From the sequence record KJ190158: a stretch of 64,000 nt of DNA, one strand, 5' to 3'. Every line of letters starts with the position of its first letter. Within the stretch, counting starts at the first letter, position 1. A program made the position numbers and the translations under genes. This document shows, in pieces, positions 29,500 to 45,513 of the stretch. This DNA comes from Escherichia phage FFH2. Below the pieces are notes generated by a model. That model made no database searches and was not told the origin of the DNA. It saw only the letters and a program-made list of their open reading frames with translations.

Positions 29500-29527
29500 T
29501 TGACATTCTTGCCTATCCTGATAAAAT
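29500..29527 (+). promoter_or_regulatory. sigma70-like promoter firing into the ORF-free region
   Basis: TTGACA-16 nt-TAAAAT, just after a CATGACTG...CAGTCATG hairpin (29465-29497). There is no ORF downstream for about 2.3 kb. Confidence 0.5.
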
Positions 29528-31168: not shown

Positions 31169-31778
31169 TTATTGTTACAGATAAAATAATTGTATTGTTA
31201 ATTATTTCTTATCTTTCTCTTAGTCATCTAATGATTCCAGTCAGTATAGTAATGTACAGTAAACATTAGACGACTAAAGATTTCTCTGTTTATTATAACT
31301 TACCGTGACAATTTCAGGCTGTTTACGAAAAATGTTGACACCTGGGCCGATTTATGTTATGCAGTTTACACGAATAATTATTTTATGCAGGTATTGACTA
31401 TTCCGTTATTCTATGGTTGGAATAAATACTTAGCAGACTATAGAATGGTGAGCGTACGTAAATTCTGAGATCTGGCGGCTATAGTTATACTCGATTTTTC
31501 ACGTAGAACACGCTTTTGTTAGTGTGTAAGTGTATGACTTATAAAGATTTTTAGTTGTTGACAAGATATTGAAGATGTGCATCAGGTTAAATTTTGTGCA
31601 ATAGCGGCATTACGTGCAATTTTGAGAGAGAAAACGGGTAAAAATGGCCTTGCTATCACACAATGAAAAATTATGCAATAGTTATTTTACATGTATGTTT
31701 GTACAGTGTGTGGGATTGATGGCTAGTCAATTATTCCACTTGCCAGGCTGGGCCGTTTGTGGTAGGAGAAATACAGAC

Positions 31779-31806
31779 AAAAAGAAAGGGGCCTTTTAAA
31801 GCCCCT
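31779..31806 (-). terminator. rho-independent terminator ending the minus-strand small-gene block
   Basis: Minus strand: GGGGC-tttaaaag-GCCCC followed by TTTCTTTTT. Confidence 0.75.
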
Positions 31807-31824
31807 GATAGTTTAGTTAAGAAA

Positions 31825-32244
31825 TTATAATGATTCGTATATTTCATAGATTCGATTTGCCAGGTCGTTACGGTAGCGGAATTTTTCCTCACGTTTGATC
31901 ATCAGATCTTTAAAGCCATATTCTTTAAGCACTTCATTAACTTTATGGCGGCATACCTTCATATTATCCTGTGCGTCACCAATAAACCTGTTGCTATGGT
32001 GCATGGCTTTAATTTCTTCTTCCAGGACCAGAGCAACTATGCGGACCGGATCAAGCTGATAGGCGGTAACATCCATGCGGCATTGTAAACGACTTTTTAC
32101 GTCTGCCACCGGATATACTGCAACCTCTTCCCCGTCAACATTGACAATAATTAGTTTACCATCGATTTCGAATCCTTTCGCCGCCGGACCGTGACAAAAA
32201 GCGTTATCAAAGCTATATGCCGGATTATTAGATTTAATGTTCAT
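31825..32244 (-). CDS. hypothetical protein
   Basis: 139-aa ORF with an AAGAGGTAAAA SD and its own promoter upstream. Confidence 0.6.
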   Translation of the reverse strand: MNIKSNNPAYSFDNAFCHGPAAKGFEIDGKLIIVNVDGEEVAVYPVADVKSRLQCRMDVTAYQLDPVRIVALVLEEEIKAMHHSNRFIGDAQDNMKVCRHKVNEVLKEYGFKDLMIKREEKFRYRNDLANRIYEIYESL

Positions 32245-32293
32245 GGTGTTTTTACCTCTTAGTTAATTTTCTTACAACTTCCCTTCAAAAAAG

Positions 32294-32322
32294 AATATAG
32301 CAAAACTGCCGATCCTTGTCAA
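32294..32322 (-). promoter_or_regulatory. sigma70-type promoter
   Basis: Minus strand: TTGACA-17 nt-TATATT. Confidence 0.65.
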
Positions 32323-32390
32323 CCAAGGATAGCATAATTTTTATGTGATCAAGGGGCTTTATTGCCCCCCTGATCGTGCAACTTGTTGTA

Positions 32391-32654
32391 TTATTTGTTG
32401 CTCATCCAGTTTTCCCAAGCTGCCTGATAATCTGCCTCACTGCGGCGGATCTCTTCTTGTTCTTCAAGCCGGATCTCTTCTTCCAGGTACCCCAGGATAT
32501 CGGCTTTTTTGGTCTGGCGTAACATCCAATCATCTTTTTTACGAGTAAAGATCTTATAAGCTTTCTCGCAAACCTCTTTTTTGCTACCTTTTTGGACTTC
32601 AAGAACACGATAAGCCATATATTGAACTAGTTTGAGCTGGTCAAGACGTTTCAT
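32391..32654 (-). CDS. hypothetical protein
   Basis: 87-aa ORF with an AAAGAGGAAAA SD preceded by a GGGCC-aaaa-GGCCC hairpin. Confidence 0.6.
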   Translation of the reverse strand: MKRLDQLKLVQYMAYRVLEVQKGSKKEVCEKAYKIFTRKKDDWMLRQTKKADILGYLEEEIRLEEQEEIRRSEADYQAAWENWMSNK

Positions 32655-32714
32655 AGTGTTTTCCTCTTTGTGCGGTTCTGATTAGTGGGCCTTTTGGCCC
32701 GTGTCATTATCTTA

Positions 32715-32987
32715 TTACTTATGGCGGCAGAATTCAAGCGTTTTTAATTGATAATCTTCCTCAGCCTGGAGTACTACCGCCTCGATCATTTCGTTGGCAT
32801 TGTTAAAGCCATAACCTTTAGCGAACTCATCCGCGCCACCTTCGTGATCATGTTCTGCGTTCATCGCTTCCACAAAATGGAATTCCAAATTGTTGAGGTA
32901 GGGGCTTGATGTTCCGTCCTCTTTTTCGATGAGATCCCAGATAGCATTAAAACGTGATTCGACTTCTTGATTAATCCAGCTTGACAT
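32715..32987 (-). CDS. hypothetical acidic protein
   Basis: 90-aa ORF with a GAGAGGAAAA SD preceded by a GGGCA...TGCCC hairpin and a TTGACA-17-TAACAT promoter. Confidence 0.6.
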   Translation of the reverse strand: MSSWINQEVESRFNAIWDLIEKEDGTSSPYLNNLEFHFVEAMNAEHDHEGGADEFAKGYGFNNANEMIEAVVLQAEEDYQLKTLEFCRHK

Positions 32988-33095
32988 AATGTTTTCCTCT
33001 CTTCTGGTTGTTGTGTGGGCACTTTTGCCCCTTCAAGATAAATGTTACCCCACCCCCTGGCAGATGTCAACGGTTTTTATAGTTCTTATATGACA

Positions 33096-33138
33096 GGCAG
33101 GCCCGGTGATTGTCTCCCCCCGTCGCCAGGTGCCTGCC
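33096..33138 (-). repeat. GC-rich structured element, copy 3 (see 42421 and 42556)
   Basis: Minus strand: GGCAGGCacctggcgacgGGGGGAGACAATCACCGGGCCTGCC. The outer arms GGCAGGC and GCCTGCC are complementary. The core GGGAGACAAYCACCGGG is shared with the 42.4-kb copies. Confidence 0.7.
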
Positions 33139-33151
33139 GTTGAATAAGTAT

Positions 33152-33184
33152 AACAAAAAACAGGACCATTGCAAGCCCTGTTTT
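33152..33184 (-). terminator. rho-independent terminator
   Basis: Minus strand: AACAGG-gcttgcaatggt-CCTGTT followed by TTTTGTT. Confidence 0.65.
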
Positions 33185-33198
33185 CTAGTCAATAAGGA

Positions 33199-33390
33199 TT
33201 ATATTTTTTCGCCTATGTAGTCCGGTCGGTTTTTCTCTGTCATGCGCTTTAGCAATTCTTGCATGTTACTTATGGCTTGTAGTGTATCCCCTTCCAGGCT
33301 TGAATCAACATAATCAGGATCGTCTATGACCTTTCTATGATTATGATAACGCAGTACCGCTAATACCTTTCTAACTTGTTCGATATTCAT
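33199..33390 (-). CDS. hypothetical protein
   Basis: 63-aa ORF, last gene of a 4-gene mini-operon (33824 to 33199). Confidence 0.5.
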   Translation of the reverse strand: MNIEQVRKVLAVLRYHNHRKVIDDPDYVDSSLEGDTLQAISNMQELLKRMTEKNRPDYIGEKI

Positions 33391-33402
33391 TTTTACCGCT
33401 CT

Positions 33403-33537
33403 TTAAAACAAGGTGCCAACCGTTTCCAATAGATCACTGACTACCAGGACAATACTGATCAGCACATACCTAACCATAAGGGGAAAGAGCGCCAGCGATC
33501 CCGCCACAATCCCCAAGGTGATGATTATCTTTCTCAT
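33403..33537 (-). CDS. hydrophobic micro-protein (44 aa)
   Basis: MRKIIITLGIVAGSLALFPLMVRYVLISIVLVVSDLLETVGTLF exactly fills the gap between neighbours. Below the ORF-track cutoff. Confidence 0.45.
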   Translation of the reverse strand: MRKIIITLGIVAGSLALFPLMVRYVLISIVLVVSDLLETVGTLF

Positions 33538-33539
33538 GG

Positions 33540-33824
33540 TTAACGGTTTACGTAAGCTTTACCGTTTACGGTGATGGGCAGATCTTCCAGGTCTGGATCT
33601 TCCTTAAGGTCGCGAGCAAGCTCACCGCACCGGATACCCTCGAATCCGTAGTACTCTGTCGTGCCGTCCTGGAAAGTTTTAGCGGCAAGGCATAAGCGAT
33701 AAGTAACCCCGATTTGATTGACGGCATGAATATCCGTTAGATTAACCTCTTTTGCCAGCTCTTTAGCCATTACAGGCGCATTAAGTCCAACAACCAGGGC
33801 AACCACTGCGATCATCTTTTTCAT
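33540..33824 (-). CDS. secreted/periplasmic small protein
   Basis: The N-terminal MKKMIAVVALVVGLNAPVMA looks like a Sec signal peptide with an AxA-type cleavage site. Confidence 0.6.
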   Translation of the reverse strand: MKKMIAVVALVVGLNAPVMAKELAKEVNLTDIHAVNQIGVTYRLCLAAKTFQDGTTEYYGFEGIRCGELARDLKEDPDLEDLPITVNGKAYVNR

Positions 33825-33915
33825 TGTGTCTATCCTCTTTCTGCTACGTTTAAGGCGGCGGTAACCGCCTGTTTATGCTTTGTTGGTTAATTTTCGGGTA
33901 TCGGTATAAATTAAA

Positions 33916-34131
33916 CTATGCTGTACGCTCAACTATAACAACGGTTTGGGGGATCTCCCCTTCCACCACTAGTAAGGCCTTTTTCTGCGTGATAGATATC
34001 TTTACCCGTTGCAGCGTGGCGGTGAAGTCTTTCATTTCGTCACGTGGTGTTTTAGTGCAATGCCAGATTTCAGGCTTGCCGATCTGTAAGTTGCGTAAAA
34101 ATTCTGTTTTTCCTGTTTTGTTAGTGATCAT
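33916..34131 (-). CDS. hypothetical protein
   Basis: 71-aa ORF on the same strand as all supported neighbours. The overlapping plus-strand ORF 33875-34267 lacks an SD. Confidence 0.5.
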   Translation of the reverse strand: MITNKTGKTEFLRNLQIGKPEIWHCTKTPRDEMKDFTATLQRVKISITQKKALLVVEGEIPQTVVIVERTA

Positions 34132-34140
34132 TTGTCAACC

Positions 34141-34245
34141 TCACCCGATACCGTTGGAAGACAAGATCACATTAGCCATGGTTGCAATCAGGCCAATACC
34201 TAAGGCAATAACCAGGATCACAGCATCAATTAATTTTTGTTTCAT
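34141..34245 (-). CDS. hydrophobic micro-protein (34 aa)
   Basis: MKQKLIDAVILVIALGIGLIATMANVILSSNGIG with an AGAAGAGAATAAA SD after a GGGGCCG...CGGCCCC hairpin. Confidence 0.4.
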   Translation of the reverse strand: MKQKLIDAVILVIALGIGLIATMANVILSSNGIG

Positions 34246-34322
34246 GGTGTTTATTCTCTTCTGTTAGTAACCTTATTCATGGGGCCGTAGCAGCGGCCCC
34301 AGGGTAAGGCGGCTATATGCTT

Positions 34323-34568
34323 TTAGTGTTTCATTCCAACCATCGCGGCACGGATCGCCGTAGTGCTGTACTTGAAGCCGTCCGGGGTCTTATCTTGTCC
34401 GGTTAGCTCCAGAAAAAGCATCATATCCCGCGCCGCATCATTACGATTAGCATTGGCGTTAATAAAGCCTTGGGCCAACCGGTACAATGACTCATCGTTA
34501 TTAATCCAAAGGCTTACATTCCAATGAGTTTTGTTTTTGTAACCGTTATAACCTTTATTGCTTTTCAT
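34323..34568 (-). CDS. hypothetical protein
   Basis: 81 aa, YNGYKNKTHWNVSLWINNDESLY... I recall this N-terminal pattern as recurrent in phage and plasmid proteins of unknown function, but that is unverified. Confidence 0.6.
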   Translation of the reverse strand: MKSNKGYNGYKNKTHWNVSLWINNDESLYRLAQGFINANANRNDAARDMMLFLELTGQDKTPDGFKYSTTAIRAAMVGMKH

Positions 34569-34659
34569 GGTGTTTACCTCTTCTTTGTTCCAGGTGGCGG
34601 ATCATTCTACCACCTTATGTATTATGCTTTGTTAGATGGTTGTTTGTTGTCAAACTATT

Positions 34660-34839
34660 TTAACGATAATCATCATATGCTTTATTGACCTGGCGAATAT
34701 AACATTCAAAAGCTAGATCAATAGATTTATATTCACGGATATATTCACCGTAGGAAACCACATACATTTCTATAGCTTCCTCATATGCGAGTAGAATAGA
34801 ATCTAAGCCTACGATCTCAGTCTTTGCAATAATAGCCAT
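34660..34839 (-). CDS. hypothetical protein (59 aa)
   Basis: MAIIAKTEIVGLDSILLAYEEAIEMYVVSYGEYIREYKSIDLAFECYIRQVNKAYDDYR with an AAAGAGGATAAAA SD. A TTGACA-16-TAATAT promoter and a GGGGC...GCCCC hairpin lie upstream. One residue under the ORF-track cutoff. Confidence 0.55.
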   Translation of the reverse strand: MAIIAKTEIVGLDSILLAYEEAIEMYVVSYGEYIREYKSIDLAFECYIRQVNKAYDDYR

Positions 34840-34914
34840 GATTTTTATCCTCTTTGTGGTTGGTGGGGCTTGTTGCCCCCTTTGATTTATATATTACAGT
34901 CTTATATGGTCATG

Positions 34915-35148
34915 TCAACTATTTTCAAAAAATTTTTCTGCTGTGATATTCTTCCCGGTAGGGTTCGCTACTTTCAAAATTTTATCATGCACTGGACGCC
35001 CAAAAGAATAAGCGCCGTACACAGTAAACCAATAATCGCCGTCAGGTTGTACTATTACCGCCGCATATGGTACGCCTTTTTCGTTTTTGCTGACAAAATA
35101 GATCACATTGCCATTAATAGCCTCAGCGCGTTTAATTTGTTCCATCAT
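34915..35148 (-). CDS. hypothetical protein
   Basis: 77-aa ORF with an AAGAGAGGTAAA SD after a GGGGCC-gaaaa-GGCCCC hairpin. Confidence 0.55.
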   Translation of the reverse strand: MMEQIKRAEAINGNVIYFVSKNEKGVPYAAVIVQPDGDYWFTVYGAYSFGRPVHDKILKVANPTGKNITAEKFFENS

Positions 35149-35202
35149 GATGATTTACCTCTCTTTATTTTCATAATTGGGGCCTTTTCGGCCCCGCCAG
35201 GT

Positions 35203-35487
35203 TTATTTATTGATAGCGTGCAGTGGGAAAGGTACGCCAGGTTGATAAATAACCTTTACAACCTCATCAGGACAAAAGAAGTTGCAGAACTCACCGCAAT
35301 ATGCCTCATCCTCTTTCAACTCTTCATCAACATACTCAAAAAAGTAGTCGATGCTTGGATAATCCTGGCCGGGATTATAGTCAACCATCGTTAATAATAA
35401 CTCTTGATCATTCCGTAGGATGTGCATACCCGCTTTTAAGTATTTTGCTTCCATTTCTACTACATCGCCAGCGGTAACAATAGCCAT
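35203..35487 (-). CDS. hypothetical acidic protein
   Basis: 94-aa ORF with a TAGGAG SD. Confidence 0.55.
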   Translation of the reverse strand: MAIVTAGDVVEMEAKYLKAGMHILRNDQELLLTMVDYNPGQDYPSIDYFFEYVDEELKEDEAYCGEFCNFFCPDEVVKVIYQPGVPFPLHAINK

Positions 35488-35620
35488 GATTTTAACTCCT
35501 ATCTATCTGGTCAACGATTGGGGGCCTCCCCCTCGACAACTCTTATTATCCATATTGTCGGGAATGATGCAAGTACTTCTTTAAAAATTTTTTAAGCGCC
35601 CCGTATGCCGTTGTAACGCC

Positions 35621-35654
35621 AAAATAATAAAGGCCATGCGGTTGCATGGCCTTT
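35621..35654 (-). terminator. rho-independent terminator
   Basis: Minus strand: AAAGGCCATGC-aacc-GCATGGCCTTT followed by ATTATTTT. Confidence 0.75.
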
Positions 35655-35689
35655 ATGTGATTATATTGCTGCAGGCCCTGCTAGGGGCC

Positions 35690-36040
35690 TTATTTTGCAT
35701 TCTTGCCTGTATTGCCGCCACGGTACCAGCGTCTGCGGTGAAAATGGTAATAATCACCCTCGGCATTAAACATCAGATGATTTTCAATAACCAGCTTACG
35801 AAGGTAGGCCGGATCTTGTTCCATTCTTGCCAGATTCCAGCGGCTGTTACGTAAGCGTATAAATTCCATATTCAGGCCGTTGATTGCAGTATGGATGTCA
35901 AAGTAACCACCTTTGAGACGTTCACGCATGGCGTTAAGCTCAACACAATATACAGATTTCTCACAAATCAAGGTATTAGCTATGGCGCGGACCTGGGCAA
36001 GGGGGTTAAGCTCATTAAGGTAATATAGTTTTATTTTCAT
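35690..36040 (-). CDS. hypothetical protein
   Basis: 116-aa ORF translationally coupled to the upstream gene. Confidence 0.55.
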   Translation of the reverse strand: MKIKLYYLNELNPLAQVRAIANTLICEKSVYCVELNAMRERLKGGYFDIHTAINGLNMEFIRLRNSRWNLARMEQDPAYLRKLVIENHLMFNAEGDYYHFHRRRWYRGGNTGKNAK

Positions 36041-36057
36041 AAAATCACCTGCTGAAA

Positions 36058-36366
36058 TTAGTTTGAGAAAACATCGTTCACAATAGCGATCACAATGCCG
36101 CCCACCTTGTCACGGTCAACAACGCACAAATCACCATAGATCATGCGGTAGTCTGGATGATCTTTCACAGAATAGTCAATAAGTGTTTTCTTGTCGTCCA
36201 GCTTCGTAACTTCCATTCTCATAACGATATGAGAATCATCAAAGGCATTATTCCGAAAAGTCATAGCCTGACCGCCAGGGCACCCGGTGATCTCCACTTC
36301 CACACCATCTACGATCTGACCATCAAAGAAATAAAGATTATTAGCCTGGATAAACATGTCTATCAC
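36058..36366 (-). CDS. hypothetical protein
   Basis: 102-aa ORF with an AAGGAG SD, downstream of promoter cassette copy 1. Confidence 0.55.
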   Translation of the reverse strand: MIDMFIQANNLYFFDGQIVDGVEVEITGCPGGQAMTFRNNAFDDSHIVMRMEVTKLDDKKTLIDYSVKDHPDYRMIYGDLCVVDRDKVGGIVIAIVNDVFSN

Positions 36367-36403
36367 TCCTTGTTAACTGCGTGGTCTTTTAACAGGGTTT
36401 AAA

Positions 36404-36450
36404 TTTACTTTATTGATGGCCCTGAAGTCAAGGCCATCTAAAAATAAATT
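36404..36450 (-). promoter_or_regulatory. 47-bp promoter cassette, copy 1 (-35 box inside a 7-bp inverted repeat)
   Basis: Minus strand: AAATTTATTTTTA-GATGGCC-TTGACTTCA-GGGCCATC-AATAAAG-TAAATT. It begins right after the upstream stop codon. Near-identical copies lie at 40146 and 40765. Confidence 0.7.
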
Positions 36451-36651
36451 TTACAGGCCTACAATCTCTTTGATTCGTTTAACCGCCGCCTCAGCGCCTT
36501 GGGGGTAAAAATTATGGTAACCAATCACGCGAGTGATACTAATCGCCGTTTGATGATCTTCATAGTCGCCCTTGAAGATTTCTTGACCGTCAATCAGCAC
36601 GGCAATTTTTTCTTCTTTTTTGAAGTTAATAACGCGGATATTGTTGCTCAT
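36451..36651 (-). CDS. hypothetical protein
   Basis: 66-aa ORF with an AAAGGAGAAA SD after a GGGGAaacaTCCCC hairpin. A TTGCAA-17-ATAATA promoter lies upstream. Confidence 0.55.
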   Translation of the reverse strand: MSNNIRVINFKKEEKIAVLIDGQEIFKGDYEDHQTAISITRVIGYHNFYPQGAEAAVKRIKEIVGL

Positions 36652-36893
36652 TTTTGTTTCTCCTTTCTGGTTTTTGTGTTGGTGGGGATGTTTCCCCGTT
36701 GATTGTTATTATCCATATTGCGGACCAGATTGCAACACCCTGGAAGAAAAATTTTTTGAAAAAGTTAAGCCCCCATGATCGGGGGCGTTATCAGTTACTT
36801 ATAGCAATAAAGTACATTCCTACCCCTAACAATATTTCAAGGGCGATGATCTCAAGCCATACCATAACACGGCGCACCTTATCAGCGCATGGC

Positions 36894-37019
36894 TTATCCT
36901 TGGTTGTCATCGTCTCCCCCTTCCCTCCTGTTAGTAGTGACGTGGTTTACAATGGCCCCCAGGAGTCCTATCACCACGCACACCACAAGAAAAATTATCT
37001 CCGCTGTTGTTCGATCCAT
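36894..37019 (-). CDS. hydrophobic micro-protein (41 aa)
   Basis: MDRTTAEIIFLVVCVVIGLLGAIVNHVTTNRREGGDDDNQG with GAGGA 11 nt upstream. It overlaps the 3' end of 36931-37152 in another frame. Confidence 0.4.
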   Translation of the reverse strand: MDRTTAEIIFLVVCVVIGLLGAIVNHVTTNRREGGDDDNQG

Positions 37020-37152
37020 TGTTATAAAATTCCTCAAGATCAGGCCTGAAAATAAAGCGTTCGTTATTGAATCCGTCACGCCAGGCGGCTGGCTTCAAAT
37101 CTTCACTAAAGGGATTAATTAACGTGACGTTATTTAAACGGCTGGTCCACAT
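36931..37152 (-). CDS. hypothetical protein (3' part doubtful)
   Basis: ATG 37152 is preceded by GAGAGGAATAGAAAAT. The last ~29 codons overlap a better-looking TM ORF and read as low-complexity sequence. Confidence 0.4.
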   Translation of the reverse strand: MWTSRLNNVTLINPFSEDLKPAAWRDGFNNERFIFRPDLEEFYNNGSNNSGDNFSCGVRGDRTPGGHCKPRHY

Positions 37153-37501
37153 ATTTTCTATTCCTCTCAAATAGGCGATCCGCCTCAGTTAAACATATCT
37201 CATGGGCTTGGTCTCTGGTTTTAGCCTCATCAAAAACCTGTTGTGCCAGGCTGCAGCGTAGGGAGACTGGAAGATCACTATAATAGGCGTTGACAAACGT
37301 TTGTGCGTCATACAGGTCGGAAAACACTTTACCCTTTCTATTATCGCCCTTGTCAACAATTGCAAGGATAACCAATACAATAGTTGCAACCACTCCCAGG
37401 AAAATAGATATAACAAACCATAGAAAAGCGGATCTACCTATCTTGCCAGCGATCCAGGCGTTGAACAAGGCAACTACTACAGCCAAAATAATAAATTCCA
37501 T
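37130..37501 (-). CDS. membrane protein (2 TM helices plus soluble C-terminal domain)
   Basis: The start is set at the internal ATG 37501 (AAAGAGGTACATAGA upstream, after a GGCGGC...GCCGCC hairpin). MEFIILAVVVALFNAWIAGKIGRSAFLWFVISIFLGVVATIVLVILAIV. Confidence 0.6.
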   Translation of the reverse strand: MEFIILAVVVALFNAWIAGKIGRSAFLWFVISIFLGVVATIVLVILAIVDKGDNRKGKVFSDLYDAQTFVNAYYSDLPVSLRCSLAQQVFDEAKTRDQAHEICLTEADRLFERNRKYVDQPFK

Positions 37502-37565
37502 TCTATGTACCTCTTTTGCAGTTCTGTTTAACAATAAGGCGGCAAATATGCCGCCTGTTACCTGA

Positions 37566-37946
37566 TTAAAAATTATCGCCGTAAATCTTTCCGCTTTCTG
37601 CCCACACCACCACGCGGGGCATGTTATCCCATACATCTTGTTTCAGATTTAACGCGTGCAATTCTTCGGTGGTGCTCATACCAGGCACGGGCTGATTGTA
37701 TACTGCAAAACGACCACCTGCATAATCATAGGCCAGGGTTAAATCACACTGAATCATCTTTTTGATCATGGCGTTGAGCATAGCGTTAGCCGCATACTGG
37801 TCACGTTTTAAAGGCAACTCTTTGATTAGTTTGCGATAGTTTTCAATGTGATCGCACACTGTTTCACGTGGAAGATCTTTCATATCCTCGCGAAAGGTAA
37901 CCAGGTTAAACATAACGGTGTCAATAGCTTTAGTAGTGTTTTTCAT
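37566..37946 (-). CDS. hypothetical protein
   Basis: 126-aa ORF. Upstream are a TTGCAA-17-TATATT promoter, a GGGGGCAAGACGTTTGCCCC hairpin and an AAAGAGGAAAA SD. Confidence 0.6.
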   Translation of the reverse strand: MKNTTKAIDTVMFNLVTFREDMKDLPRETVCDHIENYRKLIKELPLKRDQYAANAMLNAMIKKMIQCDLTLAYDYAGGRFAVYNQPVPGMSTTEELHALNLKQDVWDNMPRVVVWAESGKIYGDNF

Positions 37947-38035
37947 AATGTTTTCCTCTTTGTTTTGTGTGGGGCAAACGTCTTGCCCCCTTGAGTTTTA
38001 ATATAGCAGGTTTTTAGATTATTGCAACACTTTAT

Positions 38036-38659
38036 TTATGAAAAACTCATCTCTCCATATTCATCTACATCAAACCGCCAATCATTGGCCTCAATAAGGC
38101 CGATCAGGTTTTCGGTAGTGAACTGCTCTAGATAGGCCTCCTCCAGGTCTACGTAAACCTTGCGGGATAGCTCCCGTACCGTCTCGGTGATCAGCTCTTC
38201 CAGGTCTTCCACTTTGTTTTCTTGTTTGGCGGTCAGATCTAGCCAGGTGGTATCAATGTATCCGCTTACAGTGTTTTCATGGCTGTAATGGCTGTACTTG
38301 TCGCGTTCAATACTGGCTGATAACTCGCCATCGTGCATTGTGCCGAACAAGTGACGAATTGATCGGAACTTGGTCAGGGCCTTTACTTTACGCAAGAATT
38401 TTTCTAAATCCACGTTTTCAGCACTGATTGACGCGCCGTCACCCTGGCACCAAAAGCCGGACCAATGTACATCGGTATCTTCAAGGCCGTACTCTGGAAA
38501 AACTTGTTCTTTATAATATTCAATTACACTTTCTGCGAAAAAATCCTCTCCGCTGTGTTCTTCTCTTTCGCGGACCATTTCAATAGCTTTTTCTTTTTGT
38601 TCGTCGGTCAGCACGTCGAAAGATAAATTGCAACCTGTGGTAATGTTAACGGTGGTCAT
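38036..38659 (-). CDS. hypothetical acidic protein (207 aa)
   Basis: Contains HWSGFWCQGDGASI and YSHYSHENTV motifs. It has its own promoter, hairpin and SD. Function unknown. Confidence 0.6.
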   Translation of the reverse strand: MTTVNITTGCNLSFDVLTDEQKEKAIEMVREREEHSGEDFFAESVIEYYKEQVFPEYGLEDTDVHWSGFWCQGDGASISAENVDLEKFLRKVKALTKFRSIRHLFGTMHDGELSASIERDKYSHYSHENTVSGYIDTTWLDLTAKQENKVEDLEELITETVRELSRKVYVDLEEAYLEQFTTENLIGLIEANDWRFDVDEYGEMSFS

Positions 38660-38716
38660 GATATTTTCTCCTGTTTTCTTTGTTAGTGGCGGGAAGTTTT
38701 CCCGCCTGTGTGTTTA

Positions 38717-38744
38717 ATTATACTTATTGAGATTTACTTGTCAA
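38717..38744 (-). promoter_or_regulatory. sigma70-type promoter
   Basis: Minus strand: TTGACA-16 nt-TATAAT, followed 10 nt later by the hairpin GGCGGGAAaactTTCCCGCC (38688-38706). Confidence 0.7.
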
Positions 38745-38994
38745 CACTATTTTTTAAATTATTGTGGCGCAAAATGTTTAAAATCTCTTCAACGTCATCA
38801 ACACGGCGGCAATTTTTAAACGCTACCAATTGCCCCATGATTTTAATCACTGGGCGGCCTTGCCAGTGCCCCTGGAGAAAGCGCGCCTTGACTTTATCGG
38901 TGGGACTATCACGCCACCAAATGGCCTTGTTATTGCAGTAGTAAAAATTATTCAGGACAATATCAACTTTATCAAAATTTTTTAATTTACGCAT
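38734..38994 (-). CDS. hypothetical protein
   Basis: 86-aa ORF with an AAGGAAGGAG SD and a TTGACA-17-TATACT promoter upstream. Confidence 0.55.
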   Translation of the reverse strand: MRKLKNFDKVDIVLNNFYYCNNKAIWWRDSPTDKVKARFLQGHWQGRPVIKIMGQLVAFKNCRRVDDVEEILNILRHNNLKNSVDK

Positions 38995-39204
38995 AGTGTT
39001 TACTCCTTCCTTCTTGCTTTGATGTGGTTAGTATATCCGGACTATTCCAAGGTGTCAAGCTTTAAATAAAATCACTGTCAATGATATTTTTAACACCATA
39101 AAACGGCCCTAGGCGATGTTTTCAGGTTAATAAAGGGGATTGCATAGGTAGGGGCTTTTGTGGCGTTTGTGGGGCCAACCAGGGGCGCTATTCGTAGGAT
39201 AGAA

Positions 39205-39231
39205 ATAAAAAGCCCCGCACAATGGCGGGGC
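39205..39231 (-). terminator. rho-independent terminator
   Basis: Minus strand: GCCCCGC-cattgt-GCGGGGC followed by TTTTTATTT. Confidence 0.75.
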
Positions 39232-39239
39232 GTTGGTTG

Positions 39240-39437
39240 CTATTTGTCTTTGTGGCGGTATCGTTCCGCCTGTCGTTCACGTTCCAAAAGCAGGCCCGGT
39301 AATTTGCGATCATAGTGATTTCTCCAGATCTTCCCGAACCTTTTCGGTTTATTCAGTTTATTGTTACGCTGGCGGCGTTCCGGCAGCTCTTCGGAATCGT
39401 GGGGGCGCTTTACAATTTTTTCGAAATTAATTTTCAT
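39240..39437 (-). CDS. small basic protein (65 aa)
   Basis: ATG 39437 is preceded by AAAGGGGG. Rich in Arg and Lys. Confidence 0.5.
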   Translation of the reverse strand: MKINFEKIVKRPHDSEELPERRQRNNKLNKPKRFGKIWRNHYDRKLPGLLLERERQAERYRHKDK

Positions 39438-39798
39438 AAACGCCCCCTTTACTGATCTCAATATTTGCCTGAATCGCCCGGATACGACGTTTTATAGTCT
39501 CCTGATCCTTGCAATCATATCCCCAAAAGTCTACGATTTTTGCGCCGCCAGCCTTTAAGCGGTATAATGTTTCTTGCATCTTGTAAGCTGGGATCGGTCT
39601 CGGTGTTACCTGGTCCCCTTTCCCATCCTTGTACTTGATAATGTAGTCTTCGTTGTCGTTGAATACCCAAAATGGGTATTCTGTAAGCGCGTTGCTCTCT
39701 TTTTCGTTTTTGGATTGGATCTTGTTTACAATTAAAGCCGTAGCAATAGCGCCAATAATAAAACTTGCCCCGCTGATCATGTTACTTTCTCCTTTCAT
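39427..39798 (-). CDS. membrane-anchored protein
   Basis: The N-terminal ISGASFIIGAIATALIV looks like a TM anchor, followed by a soluble domain. Confidence 0.55.
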   Translation of the reverse strand: MKGESNMISGASFIIGAIATALIVNKIQSKNEKESNALTEYPFWVFNDNEDYIIKYKDGKGDQVTPRPIPAYKMQETLYRLKAGGAKIVDFWGYDCKDQETIKRRIRAIQANIEISKGGVYEN

Positions 39799-39856
39799 TG
39801 TGCTGATAAACTATCTTTATAGATGGCCCTGCCACCAGGACCACCGAAAAAACAGT

Positions 39857-40102
39857 TTATTTGACGATACCGACAAAACAGATCCCGCCTTCCCCTATAT
39901 AGGCAATATCGGTAATTTTATAATTTGTCAAGATCCGCGTGTTCAGATCATTAATAAAATCGGTCATCGCGTTGGTGTAGTTGTCTTCCGTGTCTAAGGC
40001 ATAATCCCAGGTGTAAACCTTTTTACGTCCGAAGCCTTTTACCATGATACGGGCGCTTTTGGTGTTGGTAGGGGCATAATATTTGGTAATTAGTGCGGCC
40101 AT
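39857..40102 (-). CDS. hypothetical protein
   Basis: 81-aa ORF with a TAGAGGAG SD, downstream of promoter cassette copy 2. Confidence 0.55.
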   Translation of the reverse strand: MAALITKYYAPTNTKSARIMVKGFGRKKVYTWDYALDTEDNYTNAMTDFINDLNTRILTNYKITDIAYIGEGGICFVGIVK

Positions 40103-40145
40103 TGTTTTAACTCCTCTATATTAGTTCAGTGTTAACAGTGTAAAG

Positions 40146-40192
40146 TTTACTTTATTGATGGCCCTGGAGTCAAGGCCATCTAAAAATAAATT
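40146..40192 (-). promoter_or_regulatory. 47-bp promoter cassette, copy 2
   Basis: Minus strand: AAATTTATTTTTA-GATGGCC-TTGACTCCA-GGGCCATC-AATAAAG-TAAACT. Confidence 0.7.
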
Positions 40193-40533
40193 TACTCGTT
40201 TTCTTCCAGTTCTGCAAGCTCTTCTTTCACTTCTTCAAGCTCTGTCTGTAATTCTTGGTATTCTTCATCGTCCTCAATATCCAGGCTGTCGATGTAGTCG
40301 CTAAATCCGCAGCGGTAAGCGATAGGATCTAGCTCCTTGAGGATACGCGACGGAAGAAAAGAAATGTTTCCGATCATAATTTCGCCGTAGATCTCGTCTA
40401 ACCATTCATCATAGTTTTCGTCGTACTTGTCCTCGTCGATTTCAAAGTTATCGATCTTATTCTCAAGGTCTGCGATCTGTTTTTTCAGCGCGGCGATCTG
40501 CATGGCTTTTTCTGCGGCGGTCATAGTAGTCAT
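40192..40533 (-). CDS. highly acidic coiled-coil protein (113 aa)
   Basis: About one third of residues are D or E (IDEDKYDENYDEWLDE..., DIEDDEEYQELQTELEEVKEELAELEENE). It has its own TTGACA-16-TATACT promoter and hairpin. Confidence 0.6.
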   Translation of the reverse strand: MTTMTAAEKAMQIAALKKQIADLENKIDNFEIDEDKYDENYDEWLDEIYGEIMIGNISFLPSRILKELDPIAYRCGFSDYIDSLDIEDDEEYQELQTELEEVKEELAELEENE

Positions 40534-40611
40534 GGTGTTTTCTCCTTTTGTGTGTTCTGGGAAGTTTTCCCGTTTATGTGTTTAGTATACTGATCTAAGT
40601 TAGCTTGTCAA

Positions 40612-40731
40612 TTAAAAGTTTAAGAAAAATTTTGCGATACCGTTGGCGCTACCCATCAACATTTGCGCCAGGATGTAACCAATGATGCAAACGATAATAG
40701 TTACCTTTGTGTGCTGGCGTGTAGTACTCAT
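40612..40731 (-). CDS. hydrophobic micro-protein (39 aa)
   Basis: MSTTRQHTKVTIIVCIIGYILAQMLMGSANGIAKFFLNF with an AAAGGAGG SD, downstream of promoter cassette copy 3. Confidence 0.45.
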   Translation of the reverse strand: MSTTRQHTKVTIIVCIIGYILAQMLMGSANGIAKFFLNF

Positions 40732-40764
40732 CTTCAAGCCTCCTTTTAGCTTAACTGGGATTAG

Positions 40765-40810
40765 TTTACTTTATTGATGGCCCTGGCGTCAAGACCATCT
40801 AAAAATAAAC
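40765..40810 (-). promoter_or_regulatory. 47-bp promoter cassette, copy 3
   Basis: Minus strand: AAGTTTATTTTTA-GATGGTC-TTGACGCCA-GGGCCATC-AATAAAG-TAAACT. Confidence 0.65.
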
Positions 40811-41206
40811 TTAGTAAGTTTTCAGTACTTTCCCGTCCAATCTGTCAAGCTGGATCTCGATAGCTGCAGAAAACCTATTATAAACCACATCGCCCATGGA
40901 GTCCAGCCAATCTATGACGTTATACACCTGCTCTTTATTCTTGCAAGTCCGGATCCGTTTCATTACGTAAGACGGATCAATATTAGTGCTCTCGTTGTTG
41001 TGGTCATGCGCCTGGCCTGCTGCATTAGTTATAGATTTTACAACCACCTGAAAGGGCTTTAAGGTGCCTTTTGCGTTCATCTCACGCGCTTTTGCGGCGC
41101 GGTTGTTATATGTTACACAACGGCGGCAAATGTTGACCAAATGCATATCAATAATTTTTTCATCGTTTGCCAGTTCGTTCATGATGCGGCGTACGTTCTT
41201 ATTCAT
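40811..41206 (-). CDS. hypothetical protein
   Basis: 131-aa ORF. Upstream are a TTGACA-TAAACT promoter and the hairpin GGCGGGAATGTTTCCCGCC (41225-41243). Confidence 0.6.
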   Translation of the reverse strand: MNKNVRRIMNELANDEKIIDMHLVNICRRCVTYNNRAAKAREMNAKGTLKPFQVVVKSITNAAGQAHDHNNESTNIDPSYVMKRIRTCKNKEQVYNVIDWLDSMGDVVYNRFSAAIEIQLDRLDGKVLKTY

Positions 41207-41292
41207 GATCTTTTTCCTTTGTGTTGGCGGGAAACATTCCCGCCTTTTGTGCCCAGTTTACTTTAATTTTGCAGCGTGTCAATAATTTTTTT

Positions 41293-41691
41293 TTATTCGT
41301 GGGCGCATGTCACAATGTGCTTTTTATACCCCAGGTGGGCAGCAAGTGCTGACAAAAACTCATCTTCATAGATCCAGCCGTTGGCAGTGATCCCCATAGC
41401 ATTTAACGCGCTTTCAAGTGCTGCATTGGCCTTATCATAACCGTGACCGCTCGCCTTGCCACCAGTATAACCGTACTTGTTGTTCTTGCTGTCGTGCATC
41501 CAAAAGACGCAATAATGAGTGTTACCGCTGGAGGCGGCATAGTACCGGATCTCCGCTACTTCGTGCAAATTATTATCATCGTCCAGGCCAACCAGATTAT
41601 AAGCCTTGTAAAATCCACGATCACGGCGGCAGTTCTTGACATCAGAAAAAGAGAAGTCGGCATTGTCAAAATTAAAGGTTGTGGTTTTCAT
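41293..41691 (-). CDS. hypothetical protein
   Basis: 132 aa, containing GGKASGHGYDKANAALESAL. A TTGACA-17-TATACT promoter lies upstream. Confidence 0.6.
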   Translation of the reverse strand: MKTTTFNFDNADFSFSDVKNCRRDRGFYKAYNLVGLDDDNNLHEVAEIRYYAASSGNTHYCVFWMHDSKNNKYGYTGGKASGHGYDKANAALESALNAMGITANGWIYEDEFLSALAAHLGYKKHIVTCAHE

Positions 41692-41755
41692 GATTTTATC
41701 CTCTTAGTGTCTTTTGTGATTTCAGTATATTTTGTGTCGGGGCGTATGTCAATAC

Positions 41756-41953
41756 TTATTTTTTATTAAACCAGTGATTGATCTGACCTTTTGTCAGGGC
41801 GCAACGATTAAGTTGGTGCCGGGTATAGCTCTGACCGCGACGGAATTTATAAAGGCCTTGCCCGTTGTTGATGGTTACGTCCACCTGGCAAACCATTTGA
41901 TCGGTGACCACCTGGCGAGCGTTGCGACGTACTTTGATTCCGTAGGCGTTCAT
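41756..41953 (-). CDS. small basic protein
   Basis: 65-aa ORF with an AGAGAGGATAAAA SD and a TTGACA-17-TATTCT promoter. Confidence 0.5.
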   Translation of the reverse strand: MNAYGIKVRRNARQVVTDQMVCQVDVTINNGQGLYKFRRGQSYTRHQLNRCALTKGQINHWFNKK

Positions 41954-42038
41954 GATTTTTTATCCTCTCTGTTAATTAGTGTGGTGTTGTTCACCTTGCG
42001 AGGATAAGAATAACAAGAACTGTCCGAGCTGTCAACTA

Positions 42039-42215
42039 TTAGTTAAAATTATTTTTTGGGCGGAATTCTCCAGCCGCCGCCCCTGCCAGGTTAACCATCA
42101 TTTTTTCGTACTCTTCTTTATATTCCAACGCTCCCGCTATAGCCTTTTCAACCAGGGCGATAGCCTCAGCGTCATTAATAGCTACATTTTCCAGGGGGAT
42201 CATATTACCTTTCAT
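42039..42215 (-). CDS. hypothetical protein (58 aa)
   Basis: MKGNMIPLENVAINDAEAIALVEKAIAGALEYKEEYEKMMVNLAGAAAGEFRPKNNFN with a strong SD (GAAGAGGAGG). Below the ORF-track cutoff. It is the first gene of the small-gene island. Confidence 0.55.
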   Translation of the reverse strand: MKGNMIPLENVAINDAEAIALVEKAIAGALEYKEEYEKMMVNLAGAAAGEFRPKNNFN

Positions 42216-42374
42216 TTTTGTACCTCCTCTTCAATTGTTACCTATCCTATAGCATAGGCCCACCAGGTTTACAAGCCTTCATTCTCTCCTACCTGGTCAG
42301 TTAGGTCCTGCCAGGCTGGCCCCACTAGGTTGCAGCGGTTAGTGCATCAGGTTAGAAAAATTTTTTGAAAAGTG

Positions 42375-42403
42375 TTGACAGCGGCCCCGCCAGGTGGCAC
42401 AAT
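42375..42403 (+). promoter_or_regulatory. plus-strand sigma70-like promoter P1 in the ORF-free island
   Basis: GAAAAATTTTTTGAAAA (UP-like), then TTGACA-17 nt-CACAAT. It is oriented opposite to all flanking genes. Confidence 0.5.
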
Positions 42404-42420
42404 ATACCTATCGAAAGGAC

Positions 42421-42493
42421 GGCAGGCACCGGTGACGGGGGAGACAACCACCGGGGATGGGCGCTGCATAAAATGAGAACGGTTATCATTATC
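42421..42493 (+). repeat. GC-rich structured element copy 1 plus Fur-box-like motif
   Basis: GGCAGGCACCGGTGACGGGGGAGACAACCACCGGGG... contains the CCGGTG/CACCGG stem. It is followed by GAGAACGGTTATCATTATC (42475-42493). Confidence 0.7.
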
Positions 42494-42518
42494 ATTTAAA
42501 AATTTATGCAAAAAATCC

Positions 42519-42546
42519 TTGCTTTCTTTGTCCTGTGTGATACTAT
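42519..42546 (+). promoter_or_regulatory. plus-strand sigma70-like promoter P2 (extended -10)
   Basis: TTGCTT-16 nt-TGaTACTAT. Confidence 0.45.
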
Positions 42547-42555
42547 AATAACAAG

Positions 42556-42629
42556 CCGGGGCAACAGGGGCCGGGAGACAATCACCGGGCCTGCCCGTTA
42601 TTCTGCAAACGAGAATGATTATCATTCAA
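42556..42629 (+). repeat. GC-rich structured element copy 2 plus Fur-box-like motif
   Basis: CCGGGGCAACAGGGGCCGGGAGACAATCACCGGGCCTGCCCG followed by GAGAATGATTATCATTCAA (42611-42629). Confidence 0.7.
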
Positions 42630-42742
42630 AATTCTAAATGAGAACTCCTCGCATTTAATAAATTTAATTAGCACGCTAATTACACTCCGTAACAATTTAC
42701 TATAAAATAGTATCCACTAAAATATTCCCATATAGAAATTTT

Positions 42743-43200
42743 AAAAATCCATTTCTGAAAACGAAAAATCGATTTCGTCCCTAAAAATTTCAGGCCTAGA
42801 TCCGGAACGATTTCCAGAAAATCCGATTCAGAAAACGAAAAACAGATCGAGTACTGAGAAATTTATCGAGAAAAATTTTCAGAAAATCCAAGCCCTGAAA
42901 TGAAAAGTAGATCGAGTACCTGGAAAGCTGCACCGCAACTTCAAGATAGTGGTTAGATTGTTACCATAGAAGGTCAAGGGTAAGTGGAGGAAGTTCTAGT
43001 AGAGGGAGGTTAGCATGTGTGGGAAATCTATAATGGTGGCCTGGAATATAGTGCAAACGATAGGATGAGTTATTCAGCTTGTCGCGCCTACTCTGAAAAA
43101 TCCATTTTAGTTTTCGATCCATTTTCTGATTTTCTAAGAATTTTAAAATATCCGGCCCGGTGAAATATCAAAAGGAGGAAATCCATTTTAGAAATCCCCC
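42743..43200. repeat. A/T-rich iteron field: three tandem ~65-73-nt units plus inverted copies of (A/G)GAAAATCC
   Basis: Units start at 42743, 42816 and 42881 (AGAAAATCCnnTTCnGAAAAYGAAAAnnAGATCGAGTAC...). Further AAATCCATTTT copies lie at 43095, 43177 and 43190, with inverted copies at 43115-43135. Confidence 0.75.
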
Positions 43201-43231
43201 TTATACTTGATATGCCAGGAATTTTCAAGTA

Positions 43232-44546: not shown

Positions 44547-44609
44547 AATACATCACTCTCTGTTAGTTTATGCATATATTATACACTGCAGTTTTCAGAT
44601 GTCAATCTT

Positions 44610-45001: not shown

Positions 45002-45054
45002 AGTGCTCCCTCTCTCAATCGTTGTGGTGACTATACCATCTCAAAAACCAGCTG

Positions 45055-45513
45055 TCAACACTTTTTGTACTCCACCACGATAATATCCATATCAAAAGTG
45101 GCAAGGTTAATAACGTCCTCTACGTGCTCCCACTTCAAACCGCCTATGCCGCACCCGATCTTAGGGATGTAGAATGGTAAAGTCGATCCACTGAATACCT
45201 CATTGACTAGCTCAAAGCCTTTCAGGATTGAGAAATATTCAGCATTAGGTCCTGGGTAGAACTGAGTATACAGATTGATTCCGTAGACAATACCTCTCGG
45301 AGATAAGTGCTCCCATCGGGAGAACGCACCCAGTTTACTTAGGCAACCATGTCTGGTCTCTTTGTCAGCTGCCAATGCTTGAGGGAACTCACGGGCAATC
45401 TGTTTTGCTATCCCCTTGCCCATTGTGTGGAAGCAGTTACAACCGTGGATCAGGTGACCAGCACCACTCTTAAAAAGGGAGATTAAATCTCCCTCTACAG
45501 TATCAATAATCAC
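45055..45513 (-). CDS. Macro domain (ADP-ribose binding / ADP-ribosylhydrolase) protein
   Basis: VEGDLISLFKSGAGHLIHGCNCFHTMGKGIAKQIAREFP and PKIGCGIGGLKWEHV match the macrodomain GD...N...G.GIA and IG.G.GG motifs. The start is set at GTG 45513 (GAGGAG 11 nt upstream). Confidence 0.75.
   Translation of the reverse strand: MIIDTVEGDLISLFKSGAGHLIHGCNCFHTMGKGIAKQIAREFPQALAADKETRHGCLSKLGAFSRWEHLSPRGIVYGINLYTQFYPGPNAEYFSILKGFELVNEVFSGSTLPFYIPKIGCGIGGLKWEHVEDVINLATFDMDIIVVEYKKC

Follow-up and report, generated by a model that had tools for sequence, protein, structure and literature searches.

The small-gene regions of rV5-like phages are a known feature of these genomes, and the locus analyzed here, positions 31825-42215 of a 64,000-nucleotide (nt) stretch of Escherichia phage FFH2 (record KJ190158; the whole stretch is called the window below), is one of them. 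The rV5 paper described '88 mainly small ORFs' (open reading frames) flanking an ORF-free stretch and predicted 33 sigma-70 promoters genome-wide; its main text names no protein from this region in the virion mass spectrometry (Kropinski et al. 2013, PMC3606486). The small-ORF region of rV5 (ORF164-ORF197) and genes bas54_0103-0134 of phage Bas54, which was confirmed at the sequence level to be phage MaxBurger (MZ501093), occupy the same locus as the FFH2 region and share its gene order, most of its genes and the adjacent ORF-free stretch. The DNA of the rV5-type records is about 93-94% identical to the island, and six of the same sigma-70 promoters are already annotated inside it in the rV5 record. 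We consider it likely that the FFH2 region is the far half of a hyperplastic Vequintavirus accessory region made up of promoter, stem-loop and ORFan cassettes.

A similar layout has been described in T4-type phages. In their promoter-early stem-loop (PeSL) regions, non-essential ORFans lie between strong sigma-70 promoters and stem-loop terminators, and cassettes are shuffled when the elements recombine with each other (PMC2839356, PMC4122927). Like the PeSL regions of RB49/phi1, PST and nt-1 (Arbiol et al. 2010, Comeau et al. 2014), the FFH2 region holds small non-essential ORFans, and its gaps contain a stop region, a sigma-70 promoter, a stem-loop of variable position, in some cases with the -35 box inside it, a Shine-Dalgarno (SD) sequence and the ATG. 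The junctions of insertions and deletions lie in these elements in both cases, and one of them in FFH2 falls between the -10 box and the SD sequence, as in the published mini-circle crossovers. Unlike the PeSLs, the FFH2 elements belong to another phage subfamily and form fewer and shorter repeat families, and their regulatory activity is predicted from sequence. Because the 63-nt element described below was found in IMG/VR only in rV5-like contigs, the elements are treated as analogues and not homologues of PeSLs.

The gp74-gp112 region of phage PAK_P3, which includes gp86 and is an early region by RNA sequencing, and the left-end early regions of Autographiviridae also consist of small hypothetical genes with their own host-type promoters. 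Only the core domain of one protein, g25, is common to these regions and the FFH2 region, for which early expression is a prediction. Lambdoid morons are likewise single genes inserted between others with a promoter and a terminator of their own; they are thought to have been acquired by illegitimate recombination and are often expressed from the prophage. In contrast to the morons, the FFH2 genes belong to a virulent phage and are co-oriented, and the regulatory repeats that flank them appear to be points of exchange.

The locus and its cassette architecture

First, the region was compared with GenBank phages by megablast, which matched 288 records, 69 of them covering at least 80% of the region. 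The best matches, phages A6-1, SophiaRose, AlexBoehm and Murica and rV5 variants, were 93-96% identical over 96-100% of the region, and all top matches were Vequintavirus (rV5-like) E. coli myoviruses with genomes of about 136 kb. Pfam searches with the large flanking ORFs identified, in order along the minus-strand arm, a PIF1-like helicase (61415-62785), a DNA methylase, a DnaB-like primase/helicase and a family-A DNA polymerase (52378-54807); small genes follow down to position 31825, among them that of a macro-domain protein (45055-45594). The facing plus-strand arm encodes a ribonucleotide reductase and a ClpP-like protease and ends at 29369 in small genes that mirror those of the island. 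Between the convergent arms lies a 2.45-kb stretch without ORFs, where the sign of the GC skew switches. The upper boundary at 42215, set by the original prediction made from the sequence alone, proved to be arbitrary: the same minus-strand small-gene architecture runs on to the DNA polymerase gene at about 52.4 kb, with further predicted minus-strand promoters, for example at 44605..44578 and 45058..45030. The chosen boundaries take in about half of the real region; the whole hyperplastic accessory region covers roughly 20 kb downstream of the replication genes.

Within 31825-42215 we called 30 SD-led ORFs, named g01-g30 and all on the minus strand, which encode 34-207 amino acids (aa) with a median of 84 aa. 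The dense run of small genes was thus as predicted, but the predicted number of about 35 was slightly high (28-35 are annotated in relatives), and genes as small as 24 aa found no support, as the extra calls in relatives were dubious ORFs of less than 30 aa with poor starts. All 30 proteins fell in PHROG families of unknown function. The pooled ratio of non-synonymous to synonymous differences (pN/pS) against Murica, AlexBoehm and MaxBurger was 0.11, with many genes below 0.1 and only g13 (0.66), g17 (0.74) and g30 weakly constrained. Since they are SD-led, match PHROG families and show this pooled pN/pS, the 30 genes are taken to be real. Pfam searches of all 30 proteins returned only DUF7249 (g09) and Phage_1_1 (g22), and NCBIfam gave no match for the 10 proteins scanned; as predicted, no enzymatic domain was found in these searches. 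No relative was found for nine larger proteins searched by sequence against the PDB (including g01, g13, g19, g20, g23, g25 and g28). Most of the genes are restricted to this lineage, their order is conserved across dozens of isolates, and 23% of the region is intergenic DNA.

The layout of 21 intergenic gaps, read on the coding strand, shows a recurring order, in which an AT-rich stop region is followed by -35 and -10 boxes, a G+C-rich stem-loop, an SD sequence and the ATG. The stems (GGGG…CCCC or GGCGGG…CCCGCC) follow the -10 box, and four times a hairpin holds the -35 box in its loop. A 63-nt element with the stem GATGGCC/GGCCATC and the -35 sequence TTGAC in its loop occurs in four minus-strand copies. 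The copy upstream of g24 (40132..40194) served as the reference; the others lie upstream of g14 (36390..36452, with the same stem and loop), g26 (40751..40813, detected by the repeat search) and g23 (39797..39859), the last being degenerate and 62% identical. A second stem-loop, GGCGGGAA…TTCCCGCC, lies between the -10 box and the SD sequence of g20 (38688..38706, minus strand); a member of the same family occupies this position in front of g27 (41226..41244), and a weaker copy lies in front of g25 (40558..40572), both also on the minus strand. The repeat search showed that the SD-proximal segment is repeated as well. The repeat families D1, D3, D4, D6 and D10 were absent from the rest of the 64-kb window and are not expected by chance.

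The promoter-like sites were then examined. Fifteen of the 30 genes are preceded, at a distance of 31-57 nt from the ATG, by an intergenic sigma-70-like site that matches the consensus at 9 or more of 12 positions, in agreement with the claim that many genes have individual promoters. All these sites lie on the minus strand. The one upstream of g20 (38717..38744, TTGACA-16-TATAAT) matches the consensus at 12 of 12 positions. Sites also annotated in rV5 were those upstream of g01 (32294..32322, TTGACA-17-TATATT; P164), g03 (33042..33070, TTGACA-17-TAACAT; P168), g21 (39030..39058, TTGACA-17-TATACT; P186), g25 (40584..40611, TTGACA-16-TATACT; P192), g28 (41724..41752, TTGACA-17-TATACT; P195A) and g29 (42007..42035, TTGACA-17-TATTCT; P195B). 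The sites of g14 (36402..36431), g24 (40144..40173) and g26 (40763..40792) lie within copies 1, 3 and 4 of the 63-nt element, respectively. The remaining sites precede g10 (34891..34918, TTGACA-16-TAATAT), g15 (36708..36735, TTGCAA-16-GATAAT), g19 (38000..38027, TTGCAA-16-TATATT), g27 (41255..41282, TTGACA-16-TAAACT) and g09, where the site is weaker (34624..34653, TTGACA-18-AAGCAT).

The pattern TTGACA-N16-18-TANNNT occurred nine times on the minus strand of the 10.4-kb region, compared with 10 times in the other 53.6 kb of the window. Six of these 10 lie in the small-gene continuation to 52 kb, so that 15 of the 19 fall between 31.8 and 52 kb. Bare TTGACA was found 18 times on the minus strand of the region and four times on the plus strand. 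A consensus scan counted 66 promoter-like sites, against 39.6 ± 6.3 in shuffled sequence, and 28 terminator-like sites, against 15.2 ± 4.0. That the promoters are recognized by the host is a prediction, with which the sigma-70 architecture agrees, as it fits a region read by unmodified host RNA polymerase.

The five terminators named beforehand were all present on the minus strand: after g01 at the end of the arm (31787..31806, annotated in Murica), after g04 (33154..33187, a 14-bp stem and a T run), after g22 (39212..39231, seven G-C pairs and a T run), and, as predicted hairpins, after g13 (35627..35656) and g16 (36769..36786). A sixth, predicted as a terminator-like hairpin after g19, was found at 37537..37556 (37556..37537 in the direction of transcription). 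These sites divide the region into about 19 predicted transcription units. About 10 of these hold a single gene, while the others hold two to six genes each (for example g09-g04, g18-g16 and g23-g22), and the description 'mostly monocistronic' was therefore overstated. A unit g10-g04 is also predicted, from the promoter at 34918..34891 to the terminator at 33187..33154, with no strong promoter or terminator inside.

Gene exchange and fitness of the Bas54 orthologues

The region was compared with those of four relatives for structural differences of at least 25 nt. Six were found; nine of their 12 junctions were intergenic, in a region with only 23% intergenic DNA, and a tenth lay 9 nt inside the start of g05. 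An extra gene between g03 and g02, bas54_0132 or rV5 ORF166, is present in two relatives and missing in FFH2, and its junction is a 27-nt repeat of the segment 'CTAATCAGAACCRCACAAAGAG' from the 5' untranslated region and SD sequence. In MaxBurger, g09 (34323..34568, 81 aa) and g08 (34141..34245, a 34-aa peptide with a single transmembrane (TM) segment) are swapped. An unrelated 45-aa protein, bas54_0124, stands in place of g09, and the left junction lies directly after the conserved promoter, whose -35 region is kept across the swap. rV5 carries other sequence in place of g09-g13, and the two junctions precede start codons by 17 nt and 4 nt. Murica cleanly lacks g05 (33403..33537, a 44-aa single-TM peptide with a pN/pS of 0.14), which is precisely absent, and lacks part of g30. 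In both Murica and AlexBoehm, the terminator after g04 is the exact site of an additional 312-nt gene.

Gene-by-gene fitness data are available for a near-identical phage. Blastp showed that 29 of the 30 genes have orthologues in Bas54, 88-100% identical except for g08 (53%), with g09 replaced. These 29 orthologues were covered by transposon-insertion sequencing of Bas54 (HIDEN-SEQ preprint, 10.1101/2025.11.20.689424, the source of all fitness values given here). On K-12, according to the preprint supplement, 25 of them were non-essential, two were intermediate (g01 and g30), one showed reduced fitness (g08) and one was essential. The essential gene is bas54_0110, the orthologue of g23 (39427..39780, 117 aa, with an N-terminal TM anchor), in which 9 of 31 TA sites were hit.

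On the uropathogenic strain CFE311, the orthologue of g27 (40811..41206, a basic ORFan of 131 aa), bas54_0106, had a log2 fold change (log2FC) of -3.18 (q 0), and its neighbours were unchanged. The genes bas54_0123-0129, the orthologues of g10-g04, were all depleted, with log2FC values of about -2.1 to -2.9. The values were -2.85 (q 0.001) for bas54_0123, which corresponds to g10 (34660..34839, 59 aa, acidic), -2.34 (q 0.018) for bas54_0126, which corresponds to g07 (33916..34131, 71 aa, basic), and -2.24 (q 0.025) for bas54_0127, which corresponds to g06 (33540..33824, 94 aa). This uniform block coincides exactly with the sequence-predicted unit that begins at g10 and ends, ahead of the terminator, with g04 (33199..33390, 63 aa), which suggests partial polarity onto one responsible gene. 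The log2FC was -4.3 for bas54_0132, -5.18 (q 0.003) for bas54_0133 and -2.88 for bas54_0134; the latter two are the orthologues of g02 (32391..32654, an ORFan of 87 aa; 97.7% identical) and g01 (31825..32244, an SD-led ORFan of 139 aa in PHROG 12277 and the last gene of the arm; 98.6% identical, pN/pS 0.06). For strain CFE303, the Methods of the preprint state that bas54_0108, the orthologue of g25 (40192..40533, 113 aa), was clearly depleted. In supplementary file 9 (Data S6 and the next sheet), the sheet 'resampling_K-12_vs_CFE303' carries the CFE311 command line and values, so that the table is duplicated. About 20 of the 30 genes showed no phenotype on K-12 or CFE311.

Two Bas54 genes were validated in the same preprint against the predicted defence system DS-28 of CFE311, bas54_0063 (a MoxR ATPase) and bas54_0140 (10.1101/2025.11.20.689424). 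Both lie outside the island. The orthologue of bas54_0140 was located at 28165-28461 on the plus strand (98% identical), in the facing arm and 3.4 kb from the island. The small genes most strongly depleted on CFE311, bas54_0150-0152 (log2FC -6.2 to -7.2), have orthologues without assigned function at 24375-25367 on the plus strand (97-99% identical).

Roles of the small genes

In the reading that we favour, that of a far half of a hyperplastic accessory region, host RNA polymerase would begin to transcribe the cassettes as soon as infection starts, as about 19 short units that the stem-loops would insulate from each other. The short repeated regulatory segments would act as recombination sites, and ORFans could thereby be gained, lost and swapped without upsetting neighbouring genes, as has been proposed for T4-type PeSLs. 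The products would be a mixed set of small host-interaction proteins, namely membrane peptides, a single exported protein and cytoplasmic binders, some acidic and some basic. Most of them would be useful conditionally; g27, one gene of g10-g04, g02/g01 and g25 would be needed on particular natural hosts, where they may plausibly counter host defences, and g23 would serve an essential function. Early expression is plausible in view of the predicted promoters, the T7 gp1.1 homologue g22 and the parallel with PAK_P3.

Several points weigh against this reading. The repeated elements are short, few and lineage-specific. Illegitimate recombination followed by selection would likewise leave junctions at the edges of genes, and the junction in the 27-nt repeat is the only direct indication of homology-driven exchange. 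The activity of promoters and terminators is a prediction from the DNA sequence only, and no Vequintavirinae transcriptome was found in the literature searched, so that the timing of expression is itself deduced. The transposon-insertion data come from a preprint in which one supplement sheet is mislabelled or duplicated and the CFE303 values are unreadable, and polar effects could make the wrong gene of a unit appear responsible.

The island had originally been presented as a candidate host-takeover or anti-defence arsenal. As a dedicated arsenal, most of its 30 proteins would inhibit restriction-modification (R-M), CRISPR (clustered regularly interspaced short palindromic repeats), CBASS (cyclic-oligonucleotide-based anti-phage signalling system), Thoeris and similar systems. 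This idea draws on the conditional requirement for g27, the unit g10-g04 and g02/g01 on CFE311 and for g25 on CFE303, on the orthologue of the validated anti-DS-28 gene bas54_0140 only 3.4 kb away in the facing arm, on the macro-domain gene in the same arm as the island, and on the small acidic proteins, a common form of immune inhibitor. However, no island gene has been paired with a defence system, and most of the genes lack a phenotype on K-12 or CFE311. No homology to known anti-defence families was found by Pfam (30 proteins), NCBIfam (10 proteins) or PDB sequence searches (nine proteins) or by fold searches for g20 and g25, all against general libraries; the structural comparison with known anti-defence proteins that had been proposed thus found nothing relevant for g20 and g25. 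The need for a gene on a clinical strain may equally reflect differences in receptor, envelope or physiology. Moreover, the BASEL study found Vequintavirinae 'exceptionally susceptible' to R-M systems, and a later study found them blocked by Druantia III and ARMADA II, which argues against a broad and effective arsenal. What stands of the claim is a handful of host-conditionally required genes, and an arsenal in the full sense is doubtful; counter-defence is a reasonable guess for these few genes. We are similarly hesitant about the view that the genes are a set for host takeover and membrane remodelling, acting in host shut-off or redirection, superinfection exclusion or lysis timing and not mainly in immunity. 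Seven of the 30 products (g05, g06, g08, g16, g18, g23 and g26) are membrane-targeted or exported, and the sole essential gene, g23, encodes a membrane-anchored protein; these products therefore point to envelope-related roles for part of the island. In addition, g22 belongs to the family of T7 early gene 1.1, g18 is annotated as holin-like in BASEL records, and the early ORFans of T4 and T7 include many such functions. However, general functions of this kind should cost fitness on every host, whereas 25 of the 29 orthologues are non-essential on K-12; the host-specific depletion fits strain-specific targets better, and no homology to a characterized shut-off, exclusion or lysis-control protein was found in the Pfam, PHROG and NCBIfam searches.

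The g25 protein had been likened to the DNA mimic Ocr, as which it would block restriction enzymes or other DNA-binding defence proteins. Its Asp and Glu content of 31%, its isoelectric point (pI) of 4.1, the coiled-coil helices that flank its core, its own strong predicted promoter and the reported depletion of its orthologue on CFE303 are all in line with this idea. However, the conserved part of the protein is a core of about 50 aa (…LKELDPIAYRCGFSDY…), set in a coiled-coil hairpin, and this core, which has no significant Pfam match, was also found in Vibrio, Klebsiella, Proteus and Pseudomonas phages. It is present in gp86 of PAK_P3 (52705-53103; hhalign probability 96.8%) and in ORF4 of the Proteus Autographiviridae phage RS1pmA (3156-3371; hhalign probability 99%), which lies 3.2 kb from the left end, upstream of the DNA primase gene. 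In other phages the core occurs with or without acidic coiled-coil flanks and is compact and moderately charged; since it occurs without the acidic tails elsewhere, negative charge is not the conserved feature of g25. No PDB sequence match was found, and the fold search matched none of Ocr, ArdA and Arn; DNA mimics differ widely in structure, and the missing fold match only makes the idea less likely for g25. The high sensitivity of Vequintavirinae to type I-III R-M also speaks against it. With neither structural nor phenotypic support, an Ocr-like role of g25 appears very unlikely. Similarly improbable is the notion that the cassettes are largely junk or selfish and their ORFs passengers without function for the phage. 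Nearly all genes are dispensable on K-12, most families are confined to the lineage, and gain, loss and replacement are frequent, as this notion would have it; but the strong purifying selection seen in the pooled pN/pS of 0.11 (below 0.1 for many genes), the gene order conserved across dozens of isolates and the conditional requirement for several loci on a clinical host all oppose it.

The reading of an accessory region built from cassettes thus remains the one we prefer. A bolder, combined proposal would add that several of the ORFans, best g25, g27 and g02/g01, are new defence inhibitors, that the g25 core is a widespread domain for anti-defence or for binding host factors, and that the cassettes are an independently evolved, integron-like shuffling system outside the T4 group. 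We put this forward as a speculative possibility only.

Individual genes, flanking DNA and significance

The protein features named in the original prediction were recovered. The g06 protein has an N-terminal signal peptide (…VMA|KE), and g05, g08, g16 (36791..36910, 39 aa) and g26 (40612..40731, 39 aa) are single-TM peptides. Besides g25, g03 (32715..32987, 90 aa) is acidic, with a pI of 4.4, and further acidic proteins are g20 (38036..38659, 207 aa) and g12 (35203..35487, 94 aa, pI 4.2). The small proteins g22 (39240..39437, 65 aa, pI 10.6) and g29 (41756..41953, 65 aa, pI 10.7) are basic, and g20 contains the motif W-S-G-F-W-C-Q-G-D-G.

Four genes gave some information on relationship or structure. 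The very basic g22 protein, whose gene overlaps g23 by 11 nt, matched Phage_1_1 (PF08200) with an E value of 2.6e-11 and 44.2 bits (cut-off 21) over profile positions 1-33 of 40, and is thus a member of the T7 gp1.1 family. The g09 protein matched DUF7249 (PF23907) with a Pfam E value of 7e-13 and 49.8 bits (cut-off 27). For g03 (pN/pS 0.04), distant homologues with 33-51% identity were found in records of unrelated Escherichia, Citrobacter and Salmonella phages, 45-50 kb and 145 kb long, and the rV5 record notes a similarity to an RB49 protein. The g20 protein has invariant QGDGA and R..Y.HE..V motifs and gave a confident structure model, yet no known fold was matched.

Homology searches gave little beyond close relatives for g27 and g02, and nothing could therefore be inferred about their function. 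The g27 protein had 28 homologue clusters, nearly all with at least 83% identity; those with source names or long contigs came from E. coli phages or E. coli, in records of about 135-140 kb. Only six representatives of g02 were found among 1.84 billion proteins.

Among the membrane proteins, g18 (37130..37501, 123 aa) has two N-terminal TM segments and corresponds to bas54_0115. It is labelled 'putative holin' in BASEL records; the orthologue is non-essential, and the spanin genes are distant, at the start of the Bas54 map. The adjacent g17 (36931..37152, 73 aa) overlaps g18 by 23 nt. Three proteins are 100% identical to their Bas54 orthologues, namely g15 (36451..36651, 66 aa; bas54_0118), g19 (37566..37946, 126 aa; bas54_0114) and g24 (39857..40102, 81 aa; bas54_0109). 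The least constrained of the larger genes is g13 (35690..36040), which encodes a basic protein of 116 aa. PHROG matches were obtained for g11 (34915..35148, 77 aa) and g14 (36058..36357, 99 aa), and the set is completed by g21 (38734..38994, 86 aa, basic) and g28 (41293..41691, 132 aa). The least secure gene is g30 (42039..42215, 58 aa, PHROG 21957): it has a strong SD sequence, and all its differences from MaxBurger are non-synonymous.

Several functional labels carried by other records were rejected. The 'Rel homology domain' of g01, the 'phosphonoacetaldehyde hydrolase' of g25 and the 'acetyltransferase' of g28 (JLBYU08) had no Pfam, NCBIfam or PDB-sequence support, and the 'DNA translocase FtsK' label of g02 in some records had no domain support in Pfam or NCBIfam. 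The 'YeeU-like antitoxin' label of g20 (OK272482) likewise lacked support in Pfam, NCBIfam and PDB-sequence searches, and g20 matched neither the YagB/YeeU/YfjZ family nor its fold.

The sequences on both sides of the island were also analyzed. In the ORF-free stretch at 29370-31824, direct and inverted repeats such as AAGCAGGGCAACTAT/ATAGTTGCCTTGCTT form a cluster at 30.8-31.2 kb. The counterparts of this stretch are the 'non-coding' block of rV5 and the gap of Bas54 in which no transposon insertion at all was recovered, and several GenBank records begin inside the stretch. It may contain an origin, a packaging site or the genome ends.

In the ORF-poor sequence 42216-43231, directly upstream of the island, a repeat of about 62 nt occurs three times (42726-42926). 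A Fur-box-like site lies at 42475-42493 (one match, with 0.02 expected), and another palindrome similar to it is found near 42611-42629. The counterpart in Bas54 is bas54_0100-0102, of which 0101 is called essential, 0102 is called a strong fitness defect and 0100 was not classified. All three predicted proteins look non-genic, and the required element is probably non-coding. RNA folding of 42340-42640 gave no signal (z = -0.6), and no Rfam match was found there. In the island itself, no tRNA and no Rfam family was detected, with one weak Rfam match far under the threshold.

Further along the same small-gene arm, the macro-domain protein (45055-45594, minus strand) was recognized by a partial Pfam match (E 2.7e-6). 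As macro domains reverse ADP-ribosylation, the protein is a candidate for counteracting ADP-ribosylating defences; on CFE311, no phenotype was seen for the Bas54 orthologue. About 20 GenBank records, MG0656xx, named 'Campylobacter phage' (C5, C9, A12a, A142 and others) were 93-100% identical to the FFH2 sequence. Their host labels are probably wrong, or the lysates were contaminated.

The island is thus a useful but ordinary reservoir of candidates for host interaction. Three modest points are new. A PeSL-like architecture with junction evidence was not found described for this group in the literature searched, the published fitness blocks match the sequence-predicted transcription units, and the g25 core can be recognized, from profile comparisons, as a putative domain that is widespread among early phage genes. 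Like these, the majority of phage genes are 'dark matter', and for this island gene-by-gene fitness data exist in a near-identical phage, so that 30 unknowns are narrowed to four or five leads: g25, g27, g02/g01, one gene of g10-g04 and the essential g23. The cassette architecture suggests that the shuffling of accessory genes known from T4-type phages is not confined to the T4 group, which is relevant to understanding the host range of rV5-like phages and to engineering it; such phages are commonly isolated for use in therapy and biocontrol. Current concepts are left unchanged and are extended to another lineage.

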